The notes under the pieces were generated by a model. It ran no database searches and was not told the origin of the DNA. It worked only from the letters and a program-made list of their open reading frames with translations. Positions 16,262-57,336 of a stretch of 64,000 bases of DNA are shown in pieces (position 1 is the first letter of the stretch; each line of letters begins with the position of its first letter). Made by a program: the position numbers and the translations under genes. The DNA comes from Pedobacter sp. GTDB taxonomy: Bacteria > Desulfobacterota > Desulfuromonadia > Desulfuromonadales > Syntrophotaleaceae. Location: assembly GCA_050253415.1 (NCBI GenBank), contig JBFWJC010000001.1, positions 1,448,679 through 1,512,678 on the forward strand, written 5' to 3'.

Positions 16262-16277
16262 TGGCACAAAGGTTGCT
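16262..16277 (+). promoter_or_regulatory. sigma54 (-24/-12) promoter
   Basis: TGGCACaaaggTTGCT matches the TGGCAC-N5-TTGC consensus exactly. Confidence 0.7.
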
Positions 16278-21684: not shown

Positions 21685-21705
21685 AGGTCATTACGTGATG
21701 TGAAC

Positions 21706-22395: not shown

Positions 22396-22420
22396 GATAT
22401 TGACTTTTCGCTCAGTGTAG

Positions 22421-23176: not shown

Positions 23177-23178
23177 TG

Positions 23179-25860: not shown

Positions 25861-26703
25861 TTAGCCGAGCAGCGAGAGAGCCAGCTGCGGGGTCTGGTTG
25901 GACTGTGCCAGGATCGAAACACCTGCTTGCTGCAGGATGTTCATCTTGGTCATTTCCGAGGTCTCCGTGGCGATATCGGCATCGACAATTCGGGAACGCG
26001 CAGCGGAGAGGTTCTCCGAAACGTTGTTCAAGTTGGCGATGGTCGATTCGAAACGGTTCTGCTTGGCACCGAGAGTGCCGCGCAGGGAATCGACCTGGTT
26101 CAACGCGCCATCAATAGCTGAGATAGCCGTCGAGGCACCCGCTGCGGAGTCGATGGCGGCGCCATTAATGGTGGTACCTCCACCGCTAAGGGCAGTGGTG
26201 TCCATGTTGCCAATGGCAACAGAGATCTTCTCGCCGGCATTGGCGCCGACCTGGAACACTGCTGCATTGGAGCTGGCGTAGGTGCCGTCCAGCAGGTTCT
26301 GGCCGTTGAACTTGGTGGTATCGACGATGCGATCCAATTCGGAGGTCAATTCGCTGAATTCCGAGTTCAGAGCAGTGCGGTCGTCGGAGCTGTTGGTTCC
26401 ATTGGCGGACTGTACCGACAGTTCGCGCATGCGTTGCAGAATGTTGGTCATCTCGCCCAACGCCCCTTCCGCCGTCTGGGCGAAAGAAATAGCGTCGTTG
26501 GAGTTACGCACCGCCTGCCCCATACCTTTAATCTGGGAAGTCATGCGGTCAGAAATAGCCAGACCGGCGGCGTCATCTTTGGCGCTGTTGATACGCAAGC
26601 CCGAAGACAGGCGTTGCATGGAATTTGCGAGCGAAGATTGCGACTTCGACAAGTTCCGCTGTGCGTTCAATGATTGAACGTTAGTATTGATTGTTAATGC
26701 CAT
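25861..26703 (-). CDS. fliC: Flagellin (downstream copy, 280 aa)
   Basis: [21 protein letters not shown] and [11 protein letters not shown] conserved termini. Confidence 0.98.
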
Positions 26704-26728
26704 GGTATTCCTCCATGAAAGGTGTTTT

Positions 26729-26746
26729 TCGGGCTTCCGTGCCCGA
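26729..26746 (-). promoter_or_regulatory. CsrA-type binding hairpin in the flagellin leader
   Basis: mRNA UCGGGC-ACGGAA-GCCCGA with GGA in the loop; second site AUGGA overlaps the SD. Confidence 0.7.
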
Positions 26747-26987
26747 GCCTTTTTTTCAACTCCTTACCGATAATGTGTTTAAAGTACTTTTGTCGGTTTC
26801 ACCCCCTTTCCATGGCGTTGAAGGGGGCTTCGATAAGTTTTTATCGATCCTTTGGGCTGTTGGCGAAAATGCGGCCCTTCGCCCAGCAGTGACCCGAGAT
26901 TATAAATATGTCTGTTAAGAAGTATGTTCTCCCGGGCCAGCCCCCCGAAACCGTTGTTTGCGGGTTAATGGTATCTGCCCTGTGAGT

Positions 26988-27015
26988 CGGTGTGGCTCAC
27001 AAAGGAGCCACACCG
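26988..27015 (-). other. Hairpin just after the upstream flagellin, with no U-tract
   Basis: CGGTGTGGCTC / GAGCCACACCG 11-bp stem. Confidence 0.6.
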
Positions 27016-27025
27016 TTACTCATCC

Positions 27026-27868
27026 TTACTGAAGTAGGGACAGGGCCAGCTGGGAGCTTTGGTTGGCCTGCGAGAGGATCGATACCCCGGCCTGTTGCAG
27101 GATGTTCATCTTGGTCATTTCCGAGGTTTCCGTAGCGATGTCGGCATCGACGATGCGTGAGCGCGCTGCGGAGAGATTCTCGGAAACGTTGTTCAGGTTG
27201 GCAATGGTCGATTCGAAACGGTTTTGCTTGGCACCGAGAGTACCGCGCAGGGAGTCGACCTGGTTCAACGCGCCGTCGATTGCCGTGATCGCCGTGGATG
27301 CGTCTGCGGCGGTAGTGACGTTAGCCGCATTGATAGTGGTGCCTCCACCGCTAAGAGCGTTGGTATCCACGTTGCCAATGGCCACGGAGATCTTCTCGCC
27401 GGCATTGGCGCCGACCTGGAATACGGCGGCATTGGAGCTGGTGTAGGTGCCGTCCAGCAGGTTCTGGCCGTTGAACTTGGTGGTATCAACGATGCGGTCC
27501 AATTCCGCGGACAACTCGCTGAATTCCGAGTTCAGGGCAGTGCGGTCGTCGGTGCTGTTGGTGGAGTTGGCCGACTGTACCGACAGTTCGCGCATGCGCT
27601 GCAGGATATTGGTCATCTCGCCCAACGCGCCCTCCGCCGTCTGAGCGAAAGAAATGGCATCGTTGGCATTGCGCACCGCCTGATTCATACCCTTGATCTG
27701 GGAAGTCATGCGGTCGGAGATAGCCAGTCCGGCAGCGTCATCCTTGGCGCTGTTGATGCGCAGGCCTGAAGACAGGCGTTGCATCGATTTAGCCAGGTTC
27801 CCTTGAGATTTAGCAAGGCTGCGCTGGGTGTTGAGGGACTGTACGTTTGTGTTGATAGTGATAGCCAT
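27026..27868 (-). CDS. fliC: Flagellin (upstream copy, 280 aa)
   Basis: Same conserved termini; close paralog of 25861-26703. Confidence 0.98.
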
Positions 27869-27911: not shown

Positions 27912-28003
27912 CTTTGCATAAAGATATTTAGACCTTGTGGCTGACCAGATTGCTTCCTGCAACTTTTTGGTGAGTCTTCAAGTTTCCCCAGGGTTCAATA
28001 TAC

Positions 28004-28030
28004 TTATCGGTTGAGTTGGCCCAGAGTTTA
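28004..28030 (-). promoter_or_regulatory. sigma28 (FliA) promoter of flagellin
   Basis: TAAA-N15-ACCGATAA on the minus strand. Confidence 0.75.
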
Positions 28031-28184: not shown

Positions 28185-30149
28185 TTACCTATTTGTTCCG
28201 ATAGTGAGCCGGATCAGTCGTTGGTTAAAGCAATGGCGATCTTTAACATGGCAGGCCGTGTCGTCCATTTCCATGGCAGATAACACCAATCGGTAGAGGT
28301 ACTGTTTTTCTACCGGGGCGTAGACAATATGGCCGGTGACCGCCGTGGCGGTTTTGTCTGCCGTGATGCACACCCGCTTATGGTTGTCTCCAAGCTCTAC
28401 CGTATCGGAGGTGATTCCCAAGGCGTTGTTGGACGACACCAGCGTCGAAACAGGCGTCAAGTGGTTGGCTGGTTCGCCATTGAGGGGGAACGTCTCCGCC
28501 AGATCTCCGCCGTTATGAGTACGGTAAATTAGCTGTTCGGTTCGAAACGCTTCGGGATTAAGGGTGATATGTCCCAGGCGCAAGGTTCCGATCGGGCAGG
28601 AGGGCCACTGAAACAGATAGCTGATTTCCATGCGGGCATCGCTGGCCATCATGCGTATGGATTTGGTAACCGGGCCAAGCGACGTTTGAATGTCGGCACT
28701 TATCAGCAGGTCATCGTTATGGACCGTCAACTCCGGTTTTACCGCCGTAAGGTCGGTAATTTTATGCTGGCCGGGCACTTCGAGGACGAAGTGACCCGTG
28801 TAGTAGTCCATGCCGTACTGGATATCGTCAAAATAGCCGTGAGGCAGCGTTTTGAGCAAGGGCAGGGGGGAAAGATTCTTGTCCCACCAGCCATCAATGG
28901 CCAGACCGCGACGCAGGTTAAGGCGCAGGCGCTGCTCGGGTGTTTCGATGTCGAGAAAAGGTCCCTCGTTTTTTATCTTGAACTTATCCGGTATCGTGCC
29001 GGAGGAGTGGGCATTGCATGACGCCGTGGGGGATATCATGCGTTGTTCCAATCGGGCAAGACGGGTTTGCATGGTTTGCCAACGCTTGGTGGTGATATGG
29101 GTACGATAATCACTGCTCCACAGATGACATAGCTCTTTCCAGTCTTGGTCGCTGCAATCAGAGTTGTCGGACATGGCTTTGTACAGGCGCCAGCAGGCGG
29201 TGTTGAGAGCCATATCATCCCGGCCGGTCAGTCCCCAACGGACCACGTTGTATTTGGCCTGTTTTTTTACCGGTATCGGTTGGGCCGCTGTTTCAAGGCG
29301 CAACCGATTGCCGGCCCCGGGAATTTCCATAAAGTCGAGAACCTGCCGGGGGCCGATCAGGGAAAATCGATGGTCGGCCTTGATGGCCTTATAGAGACGG
29401 GCAATGCGTATCCATTCGCTTTCTTTGCCGGGCTTTGCTTCGGTAAGGAAGCGACCGGGACGAAAGTCGAAAATTTCCGCGTCGTTGCCGTACAGGGAAA
29501 AAGTACGCGGATCACCGTTCTGGTGGGACAAAAGGAAATCGAGGTATTCCGGAAGTTCCATTTCTCCATGGGTATAGCGCTGGAACTTCTGAAACGGAAT
29601 CGATTTATTCCAGATCAATGGCAAGGCCGTGTCGTCGGGCCCCAGGGCAAGCTGGGGCAGGTAGCGCAAATCAGGGTCCCATTCGGGATGGTTGCTGCCC
29701 GGATTCTCCCATTCCATGATGATGGCGCGATATCCGGCCTGCTGGTAGATCGGTACCAATCCTGCCGCGTAGGCTTGTTCGTTGACCAGAGCCAAATCCG
29801 GACGAAAGCCCAAAATGTTGTCATAGACCTGCAGGCCGAGGCGTTGGTTGGCGTGATTGACCGCTGCGGGCACCAGCGGACCGATGATCTGCGCATAGCC
29901 GCTGCCGATAAACTCCGCCGGGCCATGTTGGCACAATGACCGCAACTCAGCTACCCATGCGGGATCAATGGACGCCACCGCTTCAAGGGTGTAGCCCGAA
30001 GCTTCGATGCCGACAGGCAGTTGCTGCTCAGCGATCAATCGCAGCAGCGGCCAGTAACACTGGCGAATGACCTCCGGGCGCTGATCCTCCTCTATGGAAG
30101 AAAACATCAGATTGAGGTGAAAAATGGAATAAAGGCTGAGCCGGTTCAT
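28185..30149 (-). CDS. Glycoside hydrolase family 57-like protein
   Basis: FHLNL N-terminal strand, CYWPLL, SGYTLE, EFIGSGYAQII.PL, NEQAY and DAEIF resemble GH57 conserved regions. Confidence 0.7.
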   Translation of the reverse strand: MNRLSLYSIFHLNLMFSSIEEDQRPEVIRQCYWPLLRLIAEQQLPVGIEASGYTLEAVASIDPAWVAELRSLCQHGPAEFIGSGYAQIIGPLVPAAVNHANQRLGLQVYDNILGFRPDLALVNEQAYAAGLVPIYQQAGYRAIIMEWENPGSNHPEWDPDLRYLPQLALGPDDTALPLIWNKSIPFQKFQRYTHGEMELPEYLDFLLSHQNGDPRTFSLYGNDAEIFDFRPGRFLTEAKPGKESEWIRIARLYKAIKADHRFSLIGPRQVLDFMEIPGAGNRLRLETAAQPIPVKKQAKYNVVRWGLTGRDDMALNTACWRLYKAMSDNSDCSDQDWKELCHLWSSDYRTHITTKRWQTMQTRLARLEQRMISPTASCNAHSSGTIPDKFKIKNEGPFLDIETPEQRLRLNLRRGLAIDGWWDKNLSPLPLLKTLPHGYFDDIQYGMDYYTGHFVLEVPGQHKITDLTAVKPELTVHNDDLLISADIQTSLGPVTKSIRMMASDARMEISYLFQWPSCPIGTLRLGHITLNPEAFRTEQLIYRTHNGGDLAETFPLNGEPANHLTPVSTLVSSNNALGITSDTVELGDNHKRVCITADKTATAVTGHIVYAPVEKQYLYRLVLSAMEMDDTACHVKDRHCFNQRLIRLTIGTNR

Positions 30150-31090
30150 GGGGTTTCTCCCAGGCGATCACCGGGAATCAGTCCGGCTTGGCTGGCGGTC
30201 TCTTCCACATCGTCGTCCCATTGCAGACGGGTCAGCAACACCGCCCCATCACCGCATGCCACCAGCACGCCGTGGGGGAGGATTTCAAGAACGGTACCGG
30301 GGGCAGCGGTCCGGGTATCGAACGATTCGCGGCACGCCCAGATGAAAAATTTGCGGTCGCCGGCAAAGCTGAATGCGCCGGGATAAGGGTGTGCCAATGC
30401 CCGTACCCAATCGTATAGTTGCCGTTTTGGTAATGACCAGTCGATAACGCCATCTTCCGGGCGACGGCGTGGCCAGACCGTTGCCTTAGCGTCATCCTGC
30501 GGGATGCGCGGTGGCTGTCCACAAGCCAGCAGTGGTAGGCTTTCCACCAGCAGCCTGGCAGCTACTTCGTCGGTGCGTGCGCCAAGGATGGCGGCGGTAT
30601 CCTCGTAGTGAACCGGTACCATCGCCTGACTCAGCAGTTCGCCGGTGTCGGCCTCGGCATCGCACCAGAAAAGGCTGACGCCGGTCTGCTGCAACCCCTT
30701 GATCAAGGTCCAGGGGATGGGCGCCCGGCCCCGCCCCTCGGGGAGCATGGTGGGGTGCATGCCGATAAAACCGAGCTCCGGCACGGCAAGCAGCGCCTCT
30801 CCCACCAATTGGGACACGCCGATCACCATTCCGACATCGGGTTGGCATGCTTTCGACCAGCTCAGGATCTCCGGATCGTGCAGCGACGTAAAGGGGCGCG
30901 CGTTAAGATGGTAGTCCTGAATCAGGTCGTCGAAGGTACTGTGTGCCACTGTAATCCCGGCTTTGGATTCGTCCAGATACAGCACTCCGGTGATATTCGC
31001 GCCCGCCTCAAGCAATGCTTGCAGGCACCGGTGCCCGACAATGCGGGCCCCGACGTAAAGGATGCGCGGATGGTTGCCTGCAGGGGTCAT
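30146..31090 (-). CDS. Fmt-like formyltransferase (probable sugar N-formyltransferase)
   Basis: HPTMLPEGRGRAP, ADTG, DGVIDW, RALAHPYPGAF. Confidence 0.88.
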   Translation of the reverse strand: MTPAGNHPRILYVGARIVGHRCLQALLEAGANITGVLYLDESKAGITVAHSTFDDLIQDYHLNARPFTSLHDPEILSWSKACQPDVGMVIGVSQLVGEALLAVPELGFIGMHPTMLPEGRGRAPIPWTLIKGLQQTGVSLFWCDAEADTGELLSQAMVPVHYEDTAAILGARTDEVAARLLVESLPLLACGQPPRIPQDDAKATVWPRRRPEDGVIDWSLPKRQLYDWVRALAHPYPGAFSFAGDRKFFIWACRESFDTRTAAPGTVLEILPHGVLVACGDGAVLLTRLQWDDDVEETASQAGLIPGDRLGETP

Positions 31091-31764
31091 GGCAGAATCT
31101 CGCGCAGCAACATAAAGGGTTCGGCCGCCTCGAGGCCAACCTGGCTGCCCCAGGCTCTGGCCCGTGCTTCCAGTGAGGGCAGGGAACGGGCGTGCGGGAA
31201 CGGGCGCAGTTCCCCCTGGTAGGCCGACATGGCTTCCAGCTTTTTGGTCATCACGTTTGCGATGTCCAGAAAAACATTCGGCACAAACGGCAAGGCAGGA
31301 TCGCCCCAGCCGGTGGCAGAGGGCACTTCCATGGCCAGGACCCGTCGTACTGTACTCCCTGGCAGCGGGCGGCAGGCGGTAAGGGTGGCCATGGCTGTAC
31401 GCTGATGATCGATGTTCAGATCTCCGGGATGGTGGGTGTAGACGATAGCTGGCTGGACGTCATCGATAACCGACTCGATGGCTTTTACGATGTCGAGCAG
31501 GTCCACCCTGTCGAACCGGTTATCGGGAAAATCAAAAAGGCGCAGATCGGTAACGCCGAGAGCGGCGGCCGCCTGACTAGCCTCGCTTCGCAATTGCGAC
31601 AACGCCTGTTGATCCAGGGCTTCAGGGGTCTCGAGTCGTGATGACAAACCGCTGCCCAGAATAAGAATTGTTACCGTATCGTTATCCTGAGTGTGGCGGG
31701 CCATGGCTCCGCCGGCGCCGAGGACTTCATCATCGGGGTGGGCGACGATTACCAGCACATTCAT
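31087..31764 (-). CDS. PIG-L/LmbE family N-deacetylase
   Basis: AHPDDE and H..GD...DH motifs. Confidence 0.93.
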   Translation of the reverse strand: MNVLVIVAHPDDEVLGAGGAMARHTQDNDTVTILILGSGLSSRLETPEALDQQALSQLRSEASQAAAALGVTDLRLFDFPDNRFDRVDLLDIVKAIESVIDDVQPAIVYTHHPGDLNIDHQRTAMATLTACRPLPGSTVRRVLAMEVPSATGWGDPALPFVPNVFLDIANVMTKKLEAMSAYQGELRPFPHARSLPSLEARARAWGSQVGLEAAEPFMLLREILP

Positions 31765-32996
31765 ACCGCCTCCGTTTTTACCTGAATCGCCTGCACGGCG
31801 GTTTCAGCTCGCTGGGCCGCCTGTTCCCGGTCTTCGGCCACGGCGATAACCAGTCCGGCGGAGGCATTGGAGTCGGTTGGCGGTCGAACGATGTCGCCGG
31901 GTTGTACGGCCAGGCGTACCATGGTCACGCCGGGCAGGTTGCGGGCTTCTTGTTCCCCCTCGATGGCTGTGACACGGCCCGGAGTTGGAAAGATCAGACG
32001 CAAGGCCACTCCACGATCGAAACGGGGCTGCAATGCGGCAGGGTCGACTGGCAGTCCGAGGGACAGGCGGATCACCGCCAGGACAAGATCGACCCCGACA
32101 TTGAGAGGGATCTCATGGGTACAGAACCAGCCGCCGGAAAGACGCGCTGCCAACTCGATAACGTAGGGTTTGCCATCGCTGAAGACCATATCCCCCTTGA
32201 CCACTCCGCACGTCACGCCGAGGCTGCGTGCTGCCTGCTGAACCAGGTCGCGGACCGCCTGGCGCGCCCGGGTGGGCAGATGACTCGGCATGGTGCCGCC
32301 ATTTTCGATAAAATTGGGGGCGTAGCGGTCGATGTATTCATAATTGCGATCGGCAAATCCCGGGGTGTGACAGGCACCGTCCAGAACGATGCTTTCGGTA
32401 CTGATCTGCGGGCCGGGCAGATAACGTTCCACCATCACCCGGCCACTCGGTGATTGAATCAGAGCCCGCTGGTAGGCAGCGGCCAAATCCGCCTCGGGTG
32501 TCAAGCGTTGCACGCCACGACCGCCACGGCTGTCGACCGGCTTGAGTACCAGCGGAAGGCCGTTTTCCTCGGCGAGTTGCTGCAGGTGCCGGGCCGATTC
32601 GACGGCGCTGAACCATGGGATAGCCACGCCATCGTCGGCAAATTTCTGCTTCATGGCGAGCTTATCCATGGCGCGGGCAGCCACTTCGACAGGAATGCCG
32701 GGCAAACCGAGTTCGGCTGCCACCGAAGCGACGGTCAACGGCACGTCGGTGGCCAGGCACATGACGCCATCGATCTGGCGCACCTCGCGATGATAACACT
32801 TGGCTGCATCAAGGGTGGCTGCGACATCGTAGGTGCTGGCTACCAGTCGGCCATGCGCTGCCAGCATGCCGGGGGCCTCCGGATTCATATCGCTGACCAC
32901 CACGTGCAAGCCAAGATCGCGCGCTTTTTCGATGCCCGGCAGGGCTTCCATGCCGCCTCCGATAAACAGCAACGTTTTCCCTGCGTATTCAGACAA
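31761..32996 (-). CDS. ATP-grasp ligase (L-amino acid ligase-like)
   Basis: DKLAMK, VLKPVDSRGGRGV, VERYLPG, KGD, IELAARLSGG; TTG start overlapping the SDR stop. Confidence 0.88.
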   Translation of the reverse strand: MSEYAGKTLLFIGGGMEALPGIEKARDLGLHVVVSDMNPEAPGMLAAHGRLVASTYDVAATLDAAKCYHREVRQIDGVMCLATDVPLTVASVAAELGLPGIPVEVAARAMDKLAMKQKFADDGVAIPWFSAVESARHLQQLAEENGLPLVLKPVDSRGGRGVQRLTPEADLAAAYQRALIQSPSGRVMVERYLPGPQISTESIVLDGACHTPGFADRNYEYIDRYAPNFIENGGTMPSHLPTRARQAVRDLVQQAARSLGVTCGVVKGDMVFSDGKPYVIELAARLSGGWFCTHEIPLNVGVDLVLAVIRLSLGLPVDPAALQPRFDRGVALRLIFPTPGRVTAIEGEQEARNLPGVTMVRLAVQPGDIVRPPTDSNASAGLVIAVAEDREQAAQRAETAVQAIQVKTEAV

Positions 32997-33738
32997 AGTA
33001 CATCCCCCCGTTAAGGTTAAGCGTCTGGCCGGTGACGTAAGCTGCTTCATCTGAAGCCAGCCATGCCACGGCGGCGGCGATTTCTTCCGTTGTTCCGAGA
33101 CGTCCGGAGGGAATGCCAGCGACCTTTGCCTTGCCGGCCTCCGAAGTCAATTCCGCGGCTGTCATATCTGTAGACACCAATCCCGGAGATACCGCATTGG
33201 ATGTAATGCCGGCGTGGGAGTAGAGTTTTGCCAGGGAGCGGGTGAGATTGATCAATCCGGCCTTAGCCGCAGCGTAATGCACCTGGTTCATGCCGCCCCA
33301 CTGGCCGCCTATGGATACCAGGTTAATGATGCGTCCCCAACCGGCGTTGAGCATGTCCGGCAGCACCTCCTGTGCCAGGGCAAAGGGGCCGCGCAAGTTG
33401 GTGCCCAGCATCCGGTCCCAGTCTTCGTCACTGAGTTCCAAAAACGGTTTTTCCTGGGCAATGGCGCCGTTATTGACAAGAATCGCCGTGGATCCGTTAA
33501 AACGTTCACGAGTTTGTTGCAACGCCTGGCGAACCGATTCACGATCCCCGGCATCGACGCGAACGGCCAGCGCGTCAGGAAATTCAGCCGCCAGTTTTTG
33601 TGCGCCTTGCGGATGAGCACAAAAGCCTGCTGCAACCGGATGGCCATCGCACAGAAATCGCCTGGCAATGGCGTTGCCGATGCCGCGACTGGCTCCGGTG
33701 ACAAAAACGACGCGCTTGTTTTTTGGCATGTCGGCCAT
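32989..33738 (-). CDS. SDR oxidoreductase (FabG-like)
   Basis: TGASRGIG, NNG, YAAAK. Confidence 0.9.
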   Translation of the reverse strand: MADMPKNKRVVFVTGASRGIGNAIARRFLCDGHPVAAGFCAHPQGAQKLAAEFPDALAVRVDAGDRESVRQALQQTRERFNGSTAILVNNGAIAQEKPFLELSDEDWDRMLGTNLRGPFALAQEVLPDMLNAGWGRIINLVSIGGQWGGMNQVHYAAAKAGLINLTRSLAKLYSHAGITSNAVSPGLVSTDMTAAELTSEAGKAKVAGIPSGRLGTTEEIAAAVAWLASDEAAYVTGQTLNLNGGMYFV

Positions 33739-33808
33739 GGAAATTCCCCCTGAAAATAGCGTCGGCTACTCTACCATTTACCTGGTAACCGGTCAAAAGT
33801 TCCGATGG

Positions 33809-35503
33809 TCAGCGATACCACATATTATCCAGGGTTTGTCCTCCCAGAAGCATCGGAGAAACGGGAGCGTCGTGTTGAATACGGGCATGCAGCAAGGCTG
33901 GGCCGGGATCCCCAAGGAAAGCATCAACCACGGATGGGTCGAAACTTTCCAGTTGGTAGGCGGCAATTCCGTAAGCCTCGGCGATGGCGCGGAAATCGGG
34001 ATTGCGGAAATCACCGGTGACCGGGTCGTCGGTAAAAGTGATGCGCTGAAACTGGGAGACGATACCCAGTCGATTGTTGTCCAGCAGCACGATCTTGATC
34101 GGCAGGTCCAATTCACGGGCCAGCGCCAGTTCCTGAATGTTCAGCTGAAAGGAGCCATCGCCGTCGACGCACAGCACCAACTGTTGCGGTTGCACGTGGG
34201 CCGCTCCCAGCGCCACCGGCAGGGCATACCCCATGGTGCCGTGCCCCGCGGAGGTCAGTAACCGTTTGCGGGGATAATCGAAAGAAAAGTAGCGCGCCGC
34301 CCATTGCTGATGAGAACCGACCCCGGTGACTACGGTGGTCGCTTGCTGTTTGGTTGCCTGGTCGAGATAACGGAGCAGTTCGTCAGGCGCCACACCGGGC
34401 AATTCGCCATGATCGGCAAGCTGCAACGTGGTGCGGAATTCATCTGTCTGCTGCAGCCACTGGTGATGTTGGCAGGCAGGTGTATCAAAGGCCAGAAACC
34501 CTTTCAGAAAACTCTTCACGCAGCAGTTTGCGGCAATAATCTTACTCAGTCGGGAGTGTTGCAGTTCGGCCGCCTCGAGGTCGACCTGGAAGACTTTCTT
34601 CCCGGCAAAGACATCCAGTTCGGTGCCGGTCTGCCGCACATCCAGACGGCTGCCGAGGACAACGATACAATCGGCTTCAAACAGGGTGCGATTAGCCCAG
34701 GGCATGCCGGTATGGCCGATCCACCCGGCTGACAGCGGATGATCGCTGGGAAAAACCCCGATGCCGCGCATGCTGGAGACGACCGGTAATTGCCAACGCT
34801 GCGCCATGGCTCGGATTTCCTGGGCCGCATCAAGAGCACCACCCCCGACCAGCAGCAGCGGGCGCTCTGCGTCTCTTAGCGCGTCCTTCACGCTCTGTAA
34901 AAATTCGGTTGAGCAAGGTGTGCCCGGCGTGGCCCCGGAGTCCAATTCGGCGTCCAGGCTGCTGGCGAAATCTTGACACAAGGACTCCTCGATCAGGCTC
35001 ATCTGCACGTTCATGGGCAGGTCGATCACCACCGGACCACGTCTTCCATCGAGAGACAGTCGGACACCATCGATAAGAGCCTGTCGGAGCTCCTCGATAG
35101 TCTGGGGCTGCCAGACCCCTTTACTGATAGGGGCGACCATCTGCGGGGTCGGTACTTCCTGAAAGCCACGTTGACGCAGTTCCCGGGCGCGGCCGAGGTC
35201 GCGGGTGCCCACCTGGCCGGTCAAGACGATCAGTGGCACGCTGTCATAAAAGGCATCCGCGACGCAGGTAATGAGGTTGGTGGCGCCGGGGCCGCTGGTT
35301 ACAGCGACAAAGGCGGGGCCATTGTCTGATGCTGCATCGGCGATAGCCATGTAACCGGCTCCCTGTTCGGCCTTGGTACAGATCAACGGGACGCCCGCGG
35401 CTTTGCATTCATGAAAGATCGGGGCAATGGTACCGCCGGGGTAGACATACAGGCTTTTGCCGAAATGTTTTATGACTGTCGCGATCAGTGCGGAAGCGTA
35501 CAT
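33809..35503 (-). CDS. ThDP-dependent enzyme, acetolactate synthase large subunit-like
   Basis: YPGG, EQGAG, TSGPGATN, FQE, GDGSFQLNIQEL...LDNN. Confidence 0.92.
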   Translation of the reverse strand: MYASALIATVIKHFGKSLYVYPGGTIAPIFHECKAAGVPLICTKAEQGAGYMAIADAASDNGPAFVAVTSGPGATNLITCVADAFYDSVPLIVLTGQVGTRDLGRARELRQRGFQEVPTPQMVAPISKGVWQPQTIEELRQALIDGVRLSLDGRRGPVVIDLPMNVQMSLIEESLCQDFASSLDAELDSGATPGTPCSTEFLQSVKDALRDAERPLLLVGGGALDAAQEIRAMAQRWQLPVVSSMRGIGVFPSDHPLSAGWIGHTGMPWANRTLFEADCIVVLGSRLDVRQTGTELDVFAGKKVFQVDLEAAELQHSRLSKIIAANCCVKSFLKGFLAFDTPACQHHQWLQQTDEFRTTLQLADHGELPGVAPDELLRYLDQATKQQATTVVTGVGSHQQWAARYFSFDYPRKRLLTSAGHGTMGYALPVALGAAHVQPQQLVLCVDGDGSFQLNIQELALARELDLPIKIVLLDNNRLGIVSQFQRITFTDDPVTGDFRNPDFRAIAEAYGIAAYQLESFDPSVVDAFLGDPGPALLHARIQHDAPVSPMLLGGQTLDNMWYR

Positions 35504-35545
35504 TGATTTTCCTTTGCTGTGCTGTCTATGGAGTTATTTGTCTAT

Positions 35546-35561
35546 AGCAAAGTTGATGCCG
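35546..35561 (-). promoter_or_regulatory. sigma54 promoter for the ThDP-to-GH57 six-gene module
   Basis: CGGCATcaactTTGCT on the minus strand (GG-N10-GC), about 40 nt before the ATG with an AAGGA SD. Confidence 0.65.
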
Positions 35562-36806: not shown

Positions 36807-36835
36807 TTACCTTCTCCGTGTTTCCATGGACAGGA

Positions 36836-37840: not shown

Positions 37841-37880
37841 AACTATCCTCGGATGTTGGAGGTTTGCAACTGTCTTGTGT

Positions 37881-39299: not shown

Positions 39300-39375
39300 T
39301 GTCGAGAATCCTCAGCGAAAATCAAACCGGGCTGTATAGCGGCATGTAGGGAGCTGGTCTATCACCCGGCAGATG

Positions 39376-42916: not shown

Positions 42917-42985
42917 GGTTTTCGCCAATCCGGAAATGGTTGCAAAAGTCGGTTTTCCACTTTGTGAATAGGTACGTATGGCTTG

Positions 42986-47612: not shown

Positions 47613-47658
47613 AAAAAATATGCCTTTTTTTTAGTTGAAAATAAAAACGCGAAAATTC

Positions 47659-49464: not shown

Positions 49465-49512
49465 GGAATGCACCTGGTAATTGTCTGTGCTATATCTTGA
49501 AAAAACGGGTAA

Positions 49513-50736
49513 TTAATATATGTTTATCATGTTGTATAACTTAAGTGTTTTACCGCCACCATGCCAGTTGGCTTCTACTTCTTTGCCGATTTCTTCTTGG
49601 TTAGCGTAACTGGATATTACTAAAAAAGCATTTGGATCTTTGATGTCATTAAGTATATTGGGACCATAAATATTTATGCCCCTCCAACTTTGACCTTGTT
49701 TCAAGGGGTCTTTATCAATAATAACGAACTCCCGTCCCGGAGAATTGAAAAGATTGGTCCAATGATAAAGAAACTCAGTATGCAATCCTCCGCCCCAAAT
49801 GACGATGCGCGCTATTTCCGGTACTTGATTTATGGAACTACAAACAGCCTCAACAGCTTTTGGGTAATGTTCCAGGTACTTTTCAATGGTCAAACAATCA
49901 TCTTGCGTGATATCAACCGTTTCTCTCATGTTTGATGGTCGGCATAGCACGCGGCATCCATTGTAGCCATTTTGTTCCAGTCTATCTTCGATGACCCAAC
50001 CCGCCCTTTGTAAGATATTACTCAAACTGGCTCGACTGAAGTGCGTCATATGTTGGACGGAAAAAAATCCGTTTATATCATTTGTAAACCCCTTTTCAAG
50101 TATGGGTACCTCAACAACCAATCGCGTCTTTTCGTTGGATTGGTTTCTCAGATTCTTTAGAGTTGAAAGAGGGTCGGGAAGATGTTCTAAAACATGAAAC
50201 ATAGTAATCGTATCGGGAATCATCGGTAGTTTTACCTGATTGAAGTCCCCCTGAATCAGCAGGACGTCCTTTCCTGCCAGATTTTTACGACCGCGTTCAA
50301 TGGCTGGTCCGTCAATGTCAACACCGATGCGTTTGACGGTATCGGGCATCATCGACAAGAAACGACCCTCAAAGCAGCCCACATCCAACAAACTACGATT
50401 CTGTTCCAACAGCTTGTTTTTACTCAGCCATTCAAGTTGTTCCTGGGCGCGACCGGCCGTCGCTCCATAGGAACAGCCCGCTTCCGCAAACAGGATTTCA
50501 AATCCCTGCAAAGAGTAGGCGGGATCAAGATACAGAGCGAAACACTTTTGGCACTGAACCTGTCGGATGTCGACGCGTTTGGGCTGGTCTGCACGATCAC
50601 TGAAGAACTGGAAGTCCGACATGGACAGTATTTCCCGCACCCGATCGGCGCCACACACCGGACAGTCCCTGTGTTCTACAAGTTTTGGGTCTGTATGGTT
50701 GCCACGGAAACAATCAATTGAATTCCAAGAAATCAT
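49513..50736 (-). CDS. Class I SAM methyltransferase, NDP-sugar C-methyltransferase-like layout
   Basis: CPVCG...CQKC; LLDVGC; HVLEH; C-terminal IVIWGGG...IDKDPLKQG. Confidence 0.85.
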   Translation of the reverse strand: MISWNSIDCFRGNHTDPKLVEHRDCPVCGADRVREILSMSDFQFFSDRADQPKRVDIRQVQCQKCFALYLDPAYSLQGFEILFAEAGCSYGATAGRAQEQLEWLSKNKLLEQNRSLLDVGCFEGRFLSMMPDTVKRIGVDIDGPAIERGRKNLAGKDVLLIQGDFNQVKLPMIPDTITMFHVLEHLPDPLSTLKNLRNQSNEKTRLVVEVPILEKGFTNDINGFFSVQHMTHFSRASLSNILQRAGWVIEDRLEQNGYNGCRVLCRPSNMRETVDITQDDCLTIEKYLEHYPKAVEAVCSSINQVPEIARIVIWGGGLHTEFLYHWTNLFNSPGREFVIIDKDPLKQGQSWRGINIYGPNILNDIKDPNAFLVISSYANQEEIGKEVEANWHGGGKTLKLYNMINIY

Positions 50737-51818
50737 GGAGTCTCCTGTTGATGCGGATTGGTGTCAGCTTTTTGCTTCTGACTCCGGAGTCTATCAATAA
50801 TCTGAAGGGCAATACGCTGCGCGCCTTTGCCGTCCACGAGCTCACAGGCCTTTTGCATTTTTTTACGCAACCTGGGGGCGTTTAATAGTTGCGTGACTGC
50901 TTCTGCCACGTGGTTTTCCGATAGCTGGCGGTAATCGCCCAGAGATACAGCCATTCCGGCATCGGCAAGTGCTCCGGCGGAGTGAGCGTGATCCTGTGTC
51001 AGCCCCAAGAGTACGGCCGGTACATTGAGTGCTGCCAGTTCGTAAGCAGTGCCTCCAAAAGCTGCAACAGCCAGATCGGTACCGGCCATTAACGACGGCA
51101 TGTCGCTGACGTCACGTAGAAACTCAAACTTGTCTGGAAGGCTGGGGCGCAGTTGTTCCAGAGCCTGGTCATGTAAAAAAGCGCGACCCAGCACCACGCG
51201 GGCATAAAAGGGTTCCTTGACTTGGCATAAGGCCTTCAATGCCAACAAGGTCAAGCCTCCGGGGTCGCTGCCGCCCATGGTGACCAGAATCGAAGGAATC
51301 GGGTTTTGCGGTGGCGCCCGTCTAATGCTGAATTCGCGTCGTAACAGCAGATAGTCCCAGCCGATAAATGCCTGGCCGGTAAAGCGACTCCAATCCGCCT
51401 TGGTCATCTGGGGTACCGGCGGATAAAAAGCCAGGTCTGCTGCCTGGCGGCGATCGCTGGGATCGTCGATGACCGCTACGGTTAATCCATCGTTGCGCCA
51501 GCGGGACAAGGCCGAGGCGGGCAGTGTAGTCCGAATATCCAGAATCAGCCCTTTAAAGGAGTACTTCTCGACGAGAGAGTGGATCCATTGGGCTTCTTCG
51601 ATGTTGTCAGGTTTTGTGAAAACCGGGAAATTTGCCTGTTCAACCAAGGCCTCTGCCACACCTGTGCCGATTATGGCGAACCCGGGTTGCACGCCGTAAG
51701 AATCACGCAGTTCACACGCCAAAGCCAGACAGCGGACTATATGGCCCAAACCAAGTTGGGGGGAACCGTCGCACCGAATCAGGATTTGCAGGTGATTTTG
51801 GGTTGTTGGAATGCCCAT
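50733..51818 (-). CDS. pseG: PseG/SpsG UDP-sugar hydrolase
   Basis: R.DG...G.GH..RCLALA, MGGSDP, G.T.YE. Confidence 0.88.
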   Translation of the reverse strand: MGIPTTQNHLQILIRCDGSPQLGLGHIVRCLALACELRDSYGVQPGFAIIGTGVAEALVEQANFPVFTKPDNIEEAQWIHSLVEKYSFKGLILDIRTTLPASALSRWRNDGLTVAVIDDPSDRRQAADLAFYPPVPQMTKADWSRFTGQAFIGWDYLLLRREFSIRRAPPQNPIPSILVTMGGSDPGGLTLLALKALCQVKEPFYARVVLGRAFLHDQALEQLRPSLPDKFEFLRDVSDMPSLMAGTDLAVAAFGGTAYELAALNVPAVLLGLTQDHAHSAGALADAGMAVSLGDYRQLSENHVAEAVTQLLNAPRLRKKMQKACELVDGKGAQRIALQIIDRLRSQKQKADTNPHQQETP

Positions 51819-51828
51819 CAGACCGCCG

Positions 51829-52545
51829 TTATCGGTTTTGATTCTTCAAAAATTGCAAAGCTTCTTCCAGGGAAACGATGTGTCCAGGTTTGTATAAATG
51901 AGCATACAGGGTCCGGAAAAATTCCAGGTCAGCCGCGGTGTCGATGGACAGCTTATACTCCCCCATAAAGGCCGGGTCGATATCAAACGGTACGGTTTTA
52001 AGTTCATCCATGTGATCGTAAGCATAAGCCGTGACATGTTCGTAGGTCCGTGGATTGTCCGGCGCAACCGTACGCGACCATTCCAGCGCCCGGCGCGAGA
52101 TGGGTCCGGCTCCCTGGTAGGCGGAAGGTCCGTTGCATGTTGGACGGATACAATCCGCATCCTGTTCCATAATCGCAGCCGTGCTTTGATCCATGAATTC
52201 GGGATCGAACAGGGGGGCGTCACCGCAAATGCGTATGATGTAATCGGCGTCGGCATCGTCAATAGCGAGGAAAAATCTTTGCATGACGTTATCCTCGGAG
52301 CCGCGTACTACCTTCAAACCCATTTTTTGCGCCAGTTCAACCAACGGATCATCGATCGGCTGGTCCGTGGTGGCGAGGTAGACCGCCTGCGCGCAGCGTA
52401 TCTGCAAAGCCCGCGCAATAATGTGATACATAAGCGGTTGCCCCATAATAGGTTCGAGCATTTTCCCCGGCAGCCGACTTGATCCCATGCGGGCCTGAAT
52501 GATGGCGATAACTTTTTTTGATTTACTGATATTGTTACCTGTCAT
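51829..52545 (-). CDS. SpsF/PseF-type nonulosonate cytidylyltransferase
   Basis: IIQARMGSSRLPGK, RGSEDNV, RICGD.P, EHVT. Confidence 0.88.
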   Translation of the reverse strand: MTGNNISKSKKVIAIIQARMGSSRLPGKMLEPIMGQPLMYHIIARALQIRCAQAVYLATTDQPIDDPLVELAQKMGLKVVRGSEDNVMQRFFLAIDDADADYIIRICGDAPLFDPEFMDQSTAAIMEQDADCIRPTCNGPSAYQGAGPISRRALEWSRTVAPDNPRTYEHVTAYAYDHMDELKTVPFDIDPAFMGEYKLSIDTAADLEFFRTLYAHLYKPGHIVSLEEALQFLKNQNR

Positions 52546-53474
52546 TAATCTATTCCCCAGAATCGCGGGTCGATAAGTGTTTCTTCGGTTGCGGCCAGCT
52601 CGCATGCTTCGGCACATTGACCGGTCGATAACGGACCCTGTCCAGCTATGGCCAGAGCTGTATGCAGTTCCTGCAGCGATGAAACTCCGACAAGTACGGA
52701 GCTCAGAGCCTCCTCTGCCAGACAAAATCGCAGGGCCGCCTCGGGTAAAGTCAGGGCATGACCTTCCGCCCAGTCGGCCGCTGTTGCGGCAAGATTCTTG
52801 AGTTTGTCCAATCGCGCCGGGAGATGCTGGCGGCGCGAGGTAAGAACCCCTTTTAAAAAGACCGACCGCCCGAGTACGGCGATGCCACGCTGTTTGGCAG
52901 CGGGCAGAACCTTGTCCGCCATGCGCTGATCCAGAAGATTGTAGGCGATCTGCAAGGTGGCGATGTCCGGATGCGTCAACGATGCCATTGCCGCCTCTTC
53001 TCCATAGACGGAAGCACCGATAGCGCCGATCTTGCCCTGGTCGCGGGCTTGCATCAGGATTTCCATCAGCGGCGAATCGAACAATTGGCAGGCGGTTGCG
53101 TTATGAATCTGCACCAGGTCAAGCCGTTCGCGGCCCAGATTGCGCAGGCTGCGCTCCAGGCTTTGCAGCACCGCATCGGGGGAGATGGCATCCTCGCCGA
53201 AGGGGCCGATCTTTGTAGCGATATGCACTCCGGCGTGACCTGTGGCGCGCAGGGCTTTGCCTACGAAGACTTCGCTCTCACCGTAGGCCGGCGCCGTATC
53301 CAGAAGGTTGATTCCGTTTTCCAGCGCAGTGCGAATGATGGCCTCGGCCTCGGCGGTTTGAGGACGATTGGCTTTACCGGGGGCGCCGATGCCGTATTCC
53401 ATGCCCAATTCGACGGTGCCCAGGGTAATACGGGAAACGCGCAAATCGGCTTGCGTGATTTCATGGTATTCCAT
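52545..53474 (-). CDS. Aldo/keto reductase
   Basis: LGTVELGMEYG, DTAPAYG.SE, GASVY, RSVFLKG. Confidence 0.9.
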   Translation of the reverse strand: MEYHEITQADLRVSRITLGTVELGMEYGIGAPGKANRPQTAEAEAIIRTALENGINLLDTAPAYGESEVFVGKALRATGHAGVHIATKIGPFGEDAISPDAVLQSLERSLRNLGRERLDLVQIHNATACQLFDSPLMEILMQARDQGKIGAIGASVYGEEAAMASLTHPDIATLQIAYNLLDQRMADKVLPAAKQRGIAVLGRSVFLKGVLTSRRQHLPARLDKLKNLAATAADWAEGHALTLPEAALRFCLAEEALSSVLVGVSSLQELHTALAIAGQGPLSTGQCAEACELAATEETLIDPRFWGID

Positions 53475-53479
53475 GGCGG

Positions 53480-54280
53480 TTACCATGCCGTCCAGCCGCC
53501 GTCTACCACGAGATTCTGCCCGGTTACCCAAGCCGATGCGTCCGAGGCAAGGAACAGCACCGCTCCTTTGAGATCGTCGCTACCGGCCATGCGTCCCAAA
53601 GGGGTTTTGGCGACGTACTGACTGATGAATTGCTCATCCTGGTTGTTGAACAGGCCTCCGGGGGTCAGGCAGTTTACCCTGATTTTTGGTGCCCAGAAAG
53701 TTGCCAGGTAGCGCGTCATCTGGATCAGAGCCGCTTTGGTCATTCCATAGACCAATGGACTGTTGGTGCCGGTCGATCCGTAGATCCGCTGATCGGGTGC
53801 CACCATGCCGTAAATACTGGATAGGTTGATCATGACGCCGCCATCGTTTTCCAGCATGTGCGGAGCGGTTGCCCGTGATATCAGCATGGTGCCGGTAATG
53901 TTGACCGCCAGTACCTGATTCCAGTCCTTGAGAGAAACCGTTTCGAACGATTCAAAGTGATTGCTGCAAGCATTGTTGACCAGAATATCCAGGCGGCCCG
54001 CGTCAGAGATAAGGGTGTCGACAACGGAAGAAATGCTTTGTTCGCTTTCCAGGTCGAGGGCCAGGCCACGAACATCCAGCCCTTGACCACGCAGCTTTTC
54101 AGCGGTCTGCTGTACATGGGCAAGGTTGCGTGACGTGATGAAAACCGTTGCACCTGCTTCTGCCAGGGCCTGGACAGCTTGCGATCCGTACCCGTTGCCG
54201 GTCCCACCGGTAACCAGCGCAACCCGGCCTTTAAGGCAGAACAGATCCTGGGTGTTTCTGGCTTGTTGCATTTCAGGCAT
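53480..54280 (-). CDS. SDR oxidoreductase (PtmA-like, nonulosonate-cluster type)
   Basis: SSIYGMVAPD..IY, YGMTK, PGG, GQNLVVDGG. Confidence 0.88.
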   Translation of the reverse strand: MPEMQQARNTQDLFCLKGRVALVTGGTGNGYGSQAVQALAEAGATVFITSRNLAHVQQTAEKLRGQGLDVRGLALDLESEQSISSVVDTLISDAGRLDILVNNACSNHFESFETVSLKDWNQVLAVNITGTMLISRATAPHMLENDGGVMINLSSIYGMVAPDQRIYGSTGTNSPLVYGMTKAALIQMTRYLATFWAPKIRVNCLTPGGLFNNQDEQFISQYVAKTPLGRMAGSDDLKGAVLFLASDASAWVTGQNLVVDGGWTAW

Positions 54281-55132
54281 GACCAAATCCTTTTCGCACA
54301 TGTTTGAAGGGTCGCAGCCCATCCGAGGGATCTGCCCGCCATTCGCGGTCCGGCAGTTCACTGGCGACCGGGCTTTTATGGCCGTCGCCGTCGGCGCACA
54401 AGCCCTGATCAATATTCCGGATAACCTCTTTCATCGGCTCAGGCAGCCAGCAGTGACCGGCAGTAAATTCCTCACCTTGACCGTCCAGGTCGAGATGAAA
54501 TTCGATCATGGAAGCCTGCCAGCGATTTACCGCTCGGTTGATTACGCCCGGGACTACGCTGTGATCGGACCAGCCGACCTTGCAGTCGAAGGTCTTGCGC
54601 AGGGTCTCCATGGCCGCCAGGTTGCATTCGGCGGCAGGGGAGGGGTAGCTTGAAACACAGTGCAGTAAGGTCAGGTCGCTGCATCCGGAAGCTTTCAGAC
54701 AGGTTACGGCAGCAGCGATTTCATCCATCGTGGCCATGCCCGTTGAAATAATTACGGGTTTCCCGGTGGCAGCACAGTCTTGCAGAAGATCGGTCCATAG
54801 CAGTTCGTAGGAGGCGATCTTGAAAAAATCGACATGCGGTTCCAGTACCTCGACCGCTTGCAAGTGAAACGGTGTGCAACCGAAGGCAATGCCGCGCTGT
54901 TGGCAGTGTTGTGCCAGTCGGGGGATAAATTCTTCGGGAAGTTCCCAGTTTCGGCGCTGGCGGTGCATTTCGCTTTTAGCCAGGATCTCTGGAGCAAAAA
55001 GCTCGTCAATGCGAAACAGTTGAAACTTTACCCCCCAGCACCCTATATCGGCCGAACGATCGATAAAGTTAAAGCATCGTTGCAAATCACGGTGATGGTT
55101 GCTGGAAACCTCGGAAATAAATAACGGTTTCG

Positions 55133-55136
<4 letters not shown>
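54273..55136 (-). CDS. pseI: Nonulosonic acid synthase (PseI/NeuB family), short form
   Basis: SEVSSNH, VKFQ, KIAS, STGM, LHCVSSYP, GWSDH, IEFH. Confidence 0.88.

Positions 55137-57336
<2,200 letters not shown>

Follow-up and report, generated by a model that had tools for sequence, protein, structure and literature searches.

A six-gene module at positions 28,185 to 35,561 of a 64,000-nucleotide stretch of Pedobacter sp. DNA (GenBank assembly GCA_050253415.1, contig JBFWJC010000001.1, positions 1,448,679 to 1,512,678; hereafter the window) is probably, though by no means certainly, an Sfm-type tailoring module for a pseudaminic acid (Pse)-like flagellin sugar, in which a hydroxy acid would replace the usual acetyl group. 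The module is part of a flagellin glycosylation island, with flgKL on one side and two flagellin genes on the other, and encodes a thiamine diphosphate (ThDP)-dependent carboligase, a short-chain dehydrogenase/reductase (SDR), an ATP-grasp ligase, a PIG-L deacetylase, a formyltransferase homologue (Fmt-like) and a protein related to glycoside hydrolase family 57 (GH57-like). Pseudaminic- and legionaminic-type flagellin sugars control filament assembly, phage recognition, and immune recognition; to our knowledge, the enzymes that add unusual N-acyl groups to them are mostly unknown. The six genes had been named in a first-pass annotation of this DNA, and all are found as minus-strand open reading frames (ORFs) at the places and with the domain families given there:

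33809..35503, minus strand: ThDP-dependent carboligase, Sfm-type, 564 aa (Pfam TPP_enzyme_N/M/C)
32989..33738, minus strand: classical FabG-like SDR, 249 aa, predicted ketoreductase for the carboligation product (adh_short / adh_short_C2)
31761..33050, minus strand: LAL-type ATP-grasp carboxylate-amine ligase, 429 aa from the ATG at 33050 (LAL_C2 + ATP-grasp_3)
31087..31764, minus strand: PIG-L/LmbE-family deacetylase, 225 aa, accessory (PF02585, 98.9 bits)
30146..31090, minus strand: ArnA/Fmt-like formyltransferase homologue, 314 aa, accessory (Formyl_trans_N + C)
28185..30149, minus strand: GH57-like protein, 654 aa, conserved partner of the ATP-grasp (Glyco_hydro_57, PF03065, 41 bits, cutoff 21.2)

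The ThDP enzyme was placed among its relatives by phylogeny. A profile scan of metagenome contigs with this enzyme returned 80 loci, of which 68 had near-full-length matches and were kept for the tree (the ThDP match of the other 12 was shorter than 450 residues or lacking), and a scan of genome contigs with the single ThDP protein returned six loci (L001–L006). With the window enzyme and three paralogues from the same genome, the tree comprises 78 rows, three locus pairs of which share identical ThDP rows and hence are not independent. Three clades were obtained, their mutual branching order being unsettled: an acetohydroxyacid synthase (AHAS) clade of 18 rows (SH-aLRT 97), among them the IlvB of the same genome; a group of 5 rows, 4 of them directly behind rfbF-rfbG-rfbH (support 100); and a clade of 53 rows containing the window enzyme, all 6 genome loci, and 46 metagenome loci (SH-aLRT 99). 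The comparison with IlvB and YerE that the first-pass annotation had proposed as a check places the window enzyme outside both the AHAS clade and the rfbFGH-adjacent clade, which is termed YerE-like by gene context in a tree without a biochemically characterized YerE sequence. A housekeeping IlvB, considered as an identity for the ThDP enzyme, was ruled out by its TIGR00118 score (about 385.5 bits, under the equivalog cutoff of 538.35), by a true IlvB encoded on another contig of the genome (848.9 bits), and by the position in the tree.

Motifs lining the active site distinguish the Sfm-type clade, which carries a six-residue insertion with RQxGFQE together with RQTG and QFQ, from AHAS, which shows no insertion before FQE and has RVTG and QWQ; the Arg of the AHAS motif RFDDR is retained in the window enzyme as RLDVR. 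The PDB matches of the window enzyme are 6lpi (E. coli AHAS I, 291 bits) and 5ahk (247 bits), the latter presumably the Pseudomonas protegens YerE homologue. On these grounds, the ThDP enzyme is best assigned to a third branch of carboligases, apart from AHAS. A cytidylyltransferase domain (PF12804/PF02348) is fused to 8 of the 120 listed ThDP relatives (P0094, P0096, P0099, P0106, P0111, P0114, P0118, and P0120, each about 800 aa), and the family is therefore tied to CMP-sugar pathways.

ThDP enzyme, SDR, and ATP-grasp form a near-invariant triad beside pse genes. SDR and ATP-grasp genes follow the ThDP gene in all six genome loci. Across the 46 Sfm-clade metagenome loci, an SDR gene is present in 41 (39 within 300 bp of the ThDP gene) and an ATP-grasp gene in 33, with 24 of 24 wherever at least 2.2 kb lies downstream of the ThDP gene; three loci with neither are contigs of 1.6–2.5 kb. 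The GH57-like gene occurs in five of the six genome loci, the contig ending in the sixth, and in 12 of the 15 Sfm-clade metagenome loci with at least 4.5 kb downstream. PIG-L and the formyltransferase homologue are less constant: they complete the six-gene set in three genome loci (L001, L002, and L005), and within the 46 metagenome loci PIG-L appears in two (L052 and L053) and the formyltransferase type of the window in none. In L003, L004, and L006, and in 31 of its 33 metagenome loci, the ATP-grasp gene occurs without either. NeuB-like genes were detected in 16 of the 46 loci and rfbF/G/H in 0 of 46. These counts bear on two questions raised in the first-pass annotation: the six genes do co-occur elsewhere, four of them in more loci than the full set, and the triad recurs with pse genes, in line with the proposed place of the module in nonulosonate (Pse) tailoring.

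Several of these loci carry features of their own. In a Geobacter metagenome-assembled genome (MAG; L003, 1–21683), pse genes, ThDP, SDR, ATP-grasp, and GH57-like genes stand beside a UDP-glucose dehydrogenase gene, with a Wzx-type flippase and a second NeuB/cytidylyltransferase-HAD pair nearby and no flagellar genes at the locus; in view of this context, the module may also serve surface polysaccharides. In a sister Pelobacter MAG (L002, 8113–9875), genes for a further ATP-grasp-like protein (362 aa) and a methyltransferase (238 aa) separate the pse block from the ThDP gene, and the rfbFGH branch is absent. Sulfotransferase-domain proteins in L004 (7659–8648) and L032 (2949–3821) hint at sulfated sugar variants.

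The Pse pathway of this organism appears to be canonical up to the step at which PseH would act. PseB (529.9 bits, cutoff 407.75) and PseC (465, cutoff 423.5) pass their NCBIfam cutoffs, whereas PseG (135.4, cutoff 153.55) and PseI (165.6, cutoff 340.25) fall short, and no PseF equivalog was matched in the NCBIfam scan of the window proteins; the genome has a single strong NeuB-family gene. PseB and PseC thus count as canonical, whereas the PseG-like protein, the NeuB-like enzyme, and the cytidylyltransferase have diverged. A six-frame search of this 100%-complete genome gave no TIGR03585 (PseH) match at E ≤ 0.01. A PseH hidden as a fusion to PseG was considered and rejected, given that the 361-aa PseG-like protein has no GNAT match and the six-frame search was empty. 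In five further near-complete genomes with ATP-grasp, GH57-like, and pse genes, PseH exceeded the cutoff in none; of the five MAGs with the triad, one encodes PseH on a different contig and another gives a weak match. No acetyltransferase, acyl carrier protein (ACP), or CoA-ligase was found among the island ORFs scanned. Passing scores for PseB and PseC, sub-cutoff scores for PseG and PseI, and the missing PseH are what one would expect of a pathway that departs from the canonical one where PseH would act, and the CoA- and ACP-independent route to an N-acyl nonulosonate suggested in the first-pass annotation is plausible in this light.

The closest experimentally studied counterpart is the sfmABCDE operon (SO_3261–SO_3265) of Shewanella oneidensis MR-1, a flagellin modification operon genetically linked to an "atypical" Pse derivative since 2013 (Bubendorfer et al., PMC3765264). 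A 581-aa "TPP-dependent enzyme" of this strain (P0412), recovered in a homologue search with the ThDP protein of L060, shares 43% identity with the window enzyme along its entire length (E 6e-145) and, when added to the tree, falls into the same clade, which then has 58 rows (SH-aLRT 99). Sequence comparison thus shows the window enzyme to be an orthologue-level relative of P0412, which we take to be SfmB (SO_3262) from organism name, length, and source annotation. The remaining four Sfm proteins are likened to window proteins by domain architecture and length only (Sfm data from PMC3765264):

sfmA: NeuB-domain protein, SAF-less as in the window, 290 aa; window counterpart 287 aa
sfmB: ThDP enzyme, 581 aa; window counterpart 564 aa
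sfmC: 3-oxoacyl reductase-like SDR, 255 aa; window counterpart 249 aa
sfmD: SAM methyltransferase, 395 aa; window counterpart 407 aa
sfmE: ATP-grasp, 412 aa; window counterpart 411–429 aa

The gene order NeuB-ThDP-SDR-methyltransferase-ATP-grasp of L060 is that of the sfm operon. Normal flagellin modification in Shewanella is described as requiring the operon, and the glycan as a 274-Da mono-N-acetyl Pse-like core to which a 236-Da unit lacking nitrogen (C9H16O7, plus one or two further methyl groups) is attached (PMC3765264). In our own reading, C9H16O7 could be an acyclic, fully reduced C9H18O8 acid minus water, a formula that would fit carboligation followed by ketoreduction. A 2023 preprint still describes the Shewanella sugar as an "atypical" Pse derivative of unresolved structure, and literature searches joining ATP-grasp with nonulosonic acid, or with pseudaminic acid and flagellin, found no enzymology of this derivative.

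For the SDR, the best NCBIfam matches are 3-oxoacyl reductases. The ATP-grasp protein contains PF18603 (LAL_C2, 84.9 bits) and PF02655 (ATP-grasp_3, 46.7 bits), and its best PDB match is the L-amino acid ligase 3vot (E 1.2e-17). Its most constant partner is the GH57-like protein, to which the first-pass scheme, although listing the gene, gave no role. The AlphaFold2 model of this protein (pLDDT 90) retrieves with Foldseek the Thermococcus litoralis 4-alpha-glucanotransferase (1k1x) as top match, followed by GH38 mannosidases, and E124 and D223, invariant in 43 GH57-like homologues, align to E123 and D214 of 1k1w, which we take to be the nucleophile Glu and the acid/base Asp. Sequence and model together indicate that the GH57-like protein is probably catalytically active, and its gene context argues for a substrate other than an alpha-glucan. 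In a sample of 301 genomes from the phylum, 13 encode the protein; in 10 of the 12 other than the present genome, a same-strand ATP-grasp homologue is found no more than 1.7 kb away, the remaining two loci being cut by contig ends. None of these 12 loci carries the AHAS-like ThDP enzyme. They encode instead transketolase-family enzymes (5), TAL/FSA aldolases (2), UxaC with an SDR (1), or KduI with a KduD-like SDR (1), all of them sugar or sugar-acid enzymes, and methyltransferases and pse genes accompany them. L024 has a 438-aa ORF between the GH57-like and ATP-grasp genes. None of the papers searched links "pseudaminic" with "family 57".

Gene fusions bear on the acid that the ATP-grasp might use. 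Among 14 long forms of ATP-grasp relatives scanned, five are fused to FMN-dependent 2-hydroxy-acid dehydrogenase (FMN_dh) domains, one to a methyltransferase, and one to a class-III aminotransferase; the fused relatives are P0326, P0335, P0359, P0368, P0382, P0357, and P0307. The flagellin sugar of Treponema denticola is reported to be Pse-type with a 2-methoxy-4,5,6-trihydroxy-hexanoyl group (PMC13439194). The FMN_dh fusions, the sugar-acid enzymes of the sister clusters, and the name of the T. denticola acyl group support a 2-hydroxy or 2-keto acid as substrate.

PIG-L and the Fmt-like protein are a rarer, optional accessory pair. The AHPDDE and DH motifs of PIG-L are kept in its orthologues; we take AHPDD and DH to be metal-binding, as in PIG-L/LmbE zinc deacetylases. 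The Fmt-like protein (PF00551, 77.5 bits; PF02911, 72.3 bits) has ArnA as its best PDB match (162 bits), and Asn-His-Asp is the catalytic triad of that enzyme. In an unrelated lineage, L052, PIG-L is paired with a different, shorter Fmt-like protein that has CFH at the Asn site. A 2026 preprint on "Candidatus Kuenenia stuttgartiensis" correlates a deacetylase and a formyltransferase in a nonulosonate cluster with CMP-sugars in which one amine is free and one formylated (10.64898/2026.04.20.719630). By analogy, this pattern would fit either nitrogen assignment for the pair.

The following sequence of events is proposed. PseB and PseC would generate UDP-4-amino-4,6-dideoxy-AltNAc. The ThDP carboligase would join a unit derived from a 2-keto acid to a carboxylate-bearing (or carboxylate-retaining) carbonyl acceptor, leaving a ketone, which the SDR would reduce to a hydroxy or polyhydroxy acid. 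The ATP-grasp would then convert the carboxylate via an acyl phosphate into an amide with the free PseC-derived amine, taking the place of PseH and acetyl-CoA, and the GH57-like protein would act alongside it. The PseC-made amine is the more likely acceptor because the ATP-grasp occurs without PIG-L; by the same token, the simplest reading, given how common the ATP-grasp is without the PIG-L/Fmt-like pair, has the pair act on the other nitrogen. Most parsimoniously, PIG-L would take the acetyl off the remaining GlcNAc-derived N-acetyl group, and the Fmt-like protein would re-acylate the same nitrogen. The divergent PseG, the NeuB-like synthase without a SAF domain, and the cytidylyltransferase would process the noncanonical intermediate, in whatever order, and Maf would transfer the finished sugar to flagellin.

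Several points weigh against this proposal. The mechanism for this organism is inferred from sequence, and the bridge to Shewanella depends on the inferred identity of P0412 with SfmB and on the likening of the other Sfm proteins by architecture. The genetics of that operon sit uneasily with it: deletion of sfmA, sfmB, or sfmD is reported to abolish the filament, and deletions of sfmA to sfmD give flagellin of unmodified size, whereas the ATP-grasp mutant keeps its filament and part of the added mass (PMC3765264). A linear model of acid supply followed by ligation is poorly fitted by these data, since ThDP and SDR mutants should phenocopy the ATP-grasp mutant; dead-end intermediates or a second role of SfmB–D could explain the unequal phenotypes. 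The Shewanella outer unit is also reported to be lost very easily in the mass spectrometer (PMC3765264). We read this as a possible lactone loss from a hydroxyacyl amide, which for the C9 unit would leave a protonated amine, and an ester or glycosidic link would explain it too. The active-site motifs of the Sfm-type enzymes are closer to those of the rfbFGH-adjacent (YerE-like) clade than to AHAS, and in view of these shared motifs a sugar carbonyl may be the acceptor. In the Fmt-like protein, the FNLH of ArnA aligns to IGMH, with His and Asp retained and Asn replaced by Gly, as in 4 of 4 orthologues; with Gly or Cys at the position of the ArnA Asn, the transferred group is uncertain and "formyl" doubtful. 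Finally, many of the comparison genomes are MAGs, in which absences are weak evidence.

Three alternative explanations were considered. The scheme of the first-pass annotation assigns the steps differently: acetolactate would be formed and reduced to 2,3-dihydroxy-2-methylbutanoate, the ATP-grasp would ligate this acid to the amine freed by PIG-L, and the formyltransferase would formylate the PseC-made amine. The apparent translational coupling of all six genes in the window, L001, L002, and L005 would suit such a division of labor, as would the missing PseH, the resemblance to ArnA of a formyltransferase acting on a 4-amino sugar nucleotide, the retained Arg of RLDVR, and the Kuenenia CMP-nonulosonates, which are compatible with formylation of a transaminase-made amine (10.64898/2026.04.20.719630). 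Each of the three assignments nevertheless meets an obstacle. The only chemistry known for the clade is the +236 Da C9H16O7 of Shewanella (PMC3765264), with which a C5 dihydroxy acid (C5H8O3) does not agree, and the ThDP enzyme lies outside the AHAS clade without AHAS motifs. The ATP-grasps of the loci without PIG-L and formyltransferase (three of six genome and 31 of 33 metagenome loci) are 42–64% identical to that of the window, so the acceptor nitrogen would need to switch in PIG-L-bearing lineages alone. The formyltransferase homologue, for its part, lacks the catalytic Asn. We therefore consider this scheme unlikely in its details; its general idea is supported, and its step assignments are partly revised by the hydroxy-acid ligation proposed above. 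Quite unlikely, in our estimation, is a second possibility, that ThDP enzyme, SDR, and methyltransferase assemble a distinct sugar-like unit, branched or of higher carbon number, or else alter the sugar skeleton, with an ester or glycosidic link to Pse, a Pse amine left free, and an ATP-grasp that performs an ester or other dispensable ligation. It would account for the easily cleaved outer unit, for a 274-Da core that behaves as if it had a free amino group, and for the milder phenotype of the ATP-grasp mutant relative to the ThDP, SDR, and methyltransferase mutants (PMC3765264), and it draws on the YerE-like motifs of the Sfm-type ThDP enzymes, the glycosidase-type catalytic positions of the GH57-like partner, and the existence of free-amine CMP-nonulosonates (10.64898/2026.04.20.719630). 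Against it, no oxonium ion of the outer unit was seen in Shewanella (PMC3765264), no additional nucleotidyltransferase or glycosyltransferase (GT) is tied to the triad across the loci, the fusions of ATP-grasp to FMN_dh suggest that the substrate is a 2-hydroxy or 2-keto acid, and the name given to the T. denticola substituent is that of an acyl (hexanoyl) group (PMC13439194).

A third possibility, offered as an alternative in the first-pass annotation, is that ThDP enzyme and SDR are functional counterparts of YerE and YerF, working on the CDP-4-keto-3,6-dideoxyhexose of the island to give a yersiniose-type branched sugar. The substrate is plausibly at hand: rfbF, rfbG, and rfbH all exceed their equivalog cutoffs and lie on the same strand 9–12 kb upstream of the module, and rfbF and rfbH are also close to the module in L005. 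The motifs shared with the rfbFGH-adjacent clade point the same way, and YerE-like enzymes are described as AHAS-like ThDP enzymes that use this very sugar (PMC12247030). However, a tree constrained to hold the window enzyme, along with its two nearest relatives, inside the rfbFGH-adjacent clade was rejected (delta lnL 109; approximately unbiased (AU) test p 0.0018; the group was picked after inspection of the tree). Gene context separates the two types as well: rfbF/G/H adjacency holds for 4 of 5 loci of the rfbFGH-adjacent clade as opposed to none of the 46 Sfm-clade metagenome loci, and in 4 of 4 loci scanned of the former the partners of the ThDP gene are a GT2 gene and one for an extended SDR of the NDP-sugar type (PF01370), whereas in the window its partner is a classical SDR followed by the ATP-grasp. 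RfbH passes the cutoff in just two of five other triad-bearing genomes (MAGs, in which absence is weak evidence), and the CDP branch of the window already has an RmlC-like epimerase and an extended SDR of its own directly after rfbH. The YerE/YerF reading is disfavored and, in our view, very improbable.

A wider reading, more tentative than the assignment of the module itself, is suggested by the GH57-like loci: ATP-grasp and GH57-like protein may possibly form a widespread modular system for the ATP-dependent N-acylation of nonulosonic acids with sugar-derived polyhydroxy acids in place of PseH, the acid being built by interchangeable C–C bond-forming or isomerase cassettes. Such cassettes would be the AHAS-like ThDP enzyme here and in Shewanella, and transketolase, FSA-type aldolase, UxaC, or KduI elsewhere, with methyltransferases trimming the acid. 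The GH57-like protein could free an aldose or uronate acceptor, or its Glu/Asp pair could act on a lactone or acyl ligation intermediate, rather than on glucans. If true, this reading gives a route to the 236–264 Da moiety of Shewanella: ketoreduction of what the ThDP enzyme makes from a keto acid and an aldose could, for instance, yield a C9H18O8 acid. More generally, the module points to CoA-independent diversification of bacterial surface sugars. The open Shewanella question becomes assayable through the comparative pattern, in which PseH is missing, an invariant triad is accompanied by a GH57-like protein, the acid-building cassettes can be swapped, and a deacetylase/Fmt-like pair is optional.

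ORF and domain scans show the flagellar locus as one minus-strand run from about 63.8 kb down to 23.6 kb of the window. It begins with flgK, flgL, fliW, a gene for a Maf-type protein, pseB, pseC, and a NeuB-family synthase gene (287 aa, without a SAF domain), followed by genes for an SDR, an aldo-keto reductase (AKR), a cytidylyltransferase, a PseG-like protein, and a 407-aa SAM methyltransferase that matches Methyltransf_23. A CDP-dideoxyhexose branch comes next (rfbF/G/H, the RmlC-like gene, and the extended SDR gene), then two B12-radical-SAM and two radical-SAM/SPASM genes, a methyltransferase, a GT4 and a GT2 gene, and finally the six-gene module, two flagellin genes, fliD, and fliS. The features outside the module that matter here are the following:

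57900..60407, minus strand: candidate Maf-type flagellin glycosyltransferase, 835 aa, MptE-like + TPR (PF01973, 138 bits; weak PseD-domain match)
49513..57321, minus strand: upstream pse block with pseB, pseC, NeuB-like, SDR310, AKR328, cytidylyltransferase, PseG-like, and methyltransferase genes
35546..35561, minus strand: sigma-54-like motif CGGCATCAACTTTGCT, between the GT2 and ThDP genes (gap of 241 nt), 42 nt upstream of the ThDP start codon (ATG)
25861..27868, minus strand: tandem pair of flagellin genes (280 aa each), immediately downstream of the module (Flagellin_N + Flagellin_C)

The pse block is proposed to supply the sugar that the module tailors, and the tandem flagellins are its likely acceptors. 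The G+C content of the module is 0.58–0.61 (30–36 kb), compared with 0.47 at 36–38 kb and 0.54 at 28–30 kb. The second, radical-SAM-rich sugar branch spans 35745–49473 on the minus strand, and G+C falls to 0.37 at 48–50 kb. Genes for a response-regulator diguanylate cyclase and a PilZ-domain protein adjoin fliS and fliD (20713–23185).

Overlapping stop and start codons had been claimed for the last five genes of the module. ORF coordinates bear this out for the last three junctions (ATP-grasp/PIG-L, PIG-L/formyltransferase, and formyltransferase/GH57-like, 4 nt each), while the SDR/ATP-grasp overlap varies with the start chosen: 62 nt from ATG 33050, 8 nt from TTG 32996, and none from TTG 32972. 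The Atlas record of the ATP-grasp begins at residue 19, which corresponds to TTG 32996, the probable true start. ThDP and SDR genes are 70 nt apart.

The module had also been called separately promoted from a sigma-54 site. The motif CGGCATCAACTTTGCT exists, with GG and GC at the correct spacing (GG-N10-GC), yet it has two mismatches to TGGCAC-N5-TTGCW, and matches at this stringency are about as frequent in the window as chance predicts (46 versus 39.07 expected, with at least 46 in 16 of 100 shuffles; a tighter sigma-54 pattern gave 6 versus 5.8 expected). The motif is identical in the closest relative, L001, and not kept in L002; an rpoN gene is found in the genome. A terminator scan of the gap between the GT2 and ThDP genes found nothing, and separate transcription of the module is possible because of the 241-nt gap. 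Other promoter-like sequences were noted in the window. TGGCACAAAGGTTGCT (16262–16277, plus strand) is a perfect sigma-54 consensus, the sole zero-mismatch match in the window, about 335 nt upstream of an 827-aa Cache/HAMP/PAS/GGDEF ORF (16613–19096). The sigma-54-like TGGCTTTTTTTTTGCA (57380–57395, minus strand, two mismatches) lies 59 nt upstream of the pseB ORF start (57321) and may be a promoter of the pse block or a chance match. Upstream of the first flagellin gene, TAAA-N16-CCGATAA (27990–28030, minus strand) resembles what we take to be the FliA (sigma-28) promoter consensus.

Known systems resemble the module to different degrees. The Treponema denticola FlaB glycan is a Pse-type flagellin sugar with a methylated polyhydroxy-acyl group, the kind of product predicted here, although its acyl group is a C6 3-deoxy acid, unlike the predicted product of the module (PMC13439194). 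The cluster of "Ca. Kuenenia stuttgartiensis" shares a deacetylase/formyltransferase pair, which correlates with N-acetyl being lost and N-formyl gained on a CMP-sugar; compared by its description, it is Leg-type, with no mention there of an ATP-grasp, ThDP, or GH57-like protein, and the Fmt-like protein here differs in lacking the catalytic Asn (10.64898/2026.04.20.719630). YerE/YerF-like systems for yersiniose, erwiniose, and caryophyllose (PMC12247030) have in common with the module an AHAS-like ThDP fold followed by a reductase and shared motifs; the loci that are YerE-like by context continue with an extended SDR and a glycosyltransferase, in contrast to the classical SDR and ATP-grasp found here, and their ThDP enzymes belong to another clade. 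The T. litoralis GH57 4-alpha-glucanotransferase (1k1w/1k1x) matches the GH57-like protein in architecture, length (659 versus 654 aa), and Glu/Asp positions, but the two are only about 12–13% identical, and the window context is nonulosonate tailoring, not glucan metabolism. From the canonical PseB-PseC-PseH-PseG-PseI-PseF pathway of Campylobacter and Helicobacter, the island retains PseB, PseC, and then PseG-like, NeuB-family, and CMP-transferase-family genes; where that pathway uses acetyl-CoA via PseH, the acyl donor proposed here is an ATP-activated acid, and the synthase lacks a SAF domain. Closest is the sfm operon: like the window genes, it belongs to a flagellar locus that includes Maf, PseB, and PseC, and a clear PseH is missing from both. 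The window differs in dividing the genes into two blocks, with the NeuB-like and methyltransferase genes in the pse block and the CDP-dideoxyhexose/radical-SAM branch between the blocks, in adding PIG-L, Fmt-like, and GH57-like genes, and in having only a sigma-54-like motif at chance level where a sigma-28 promoter is predicted for sfm (PMC3765264). The module is, in sum, a variant of a genetically known, biochemically unsettled Sfm-type system.

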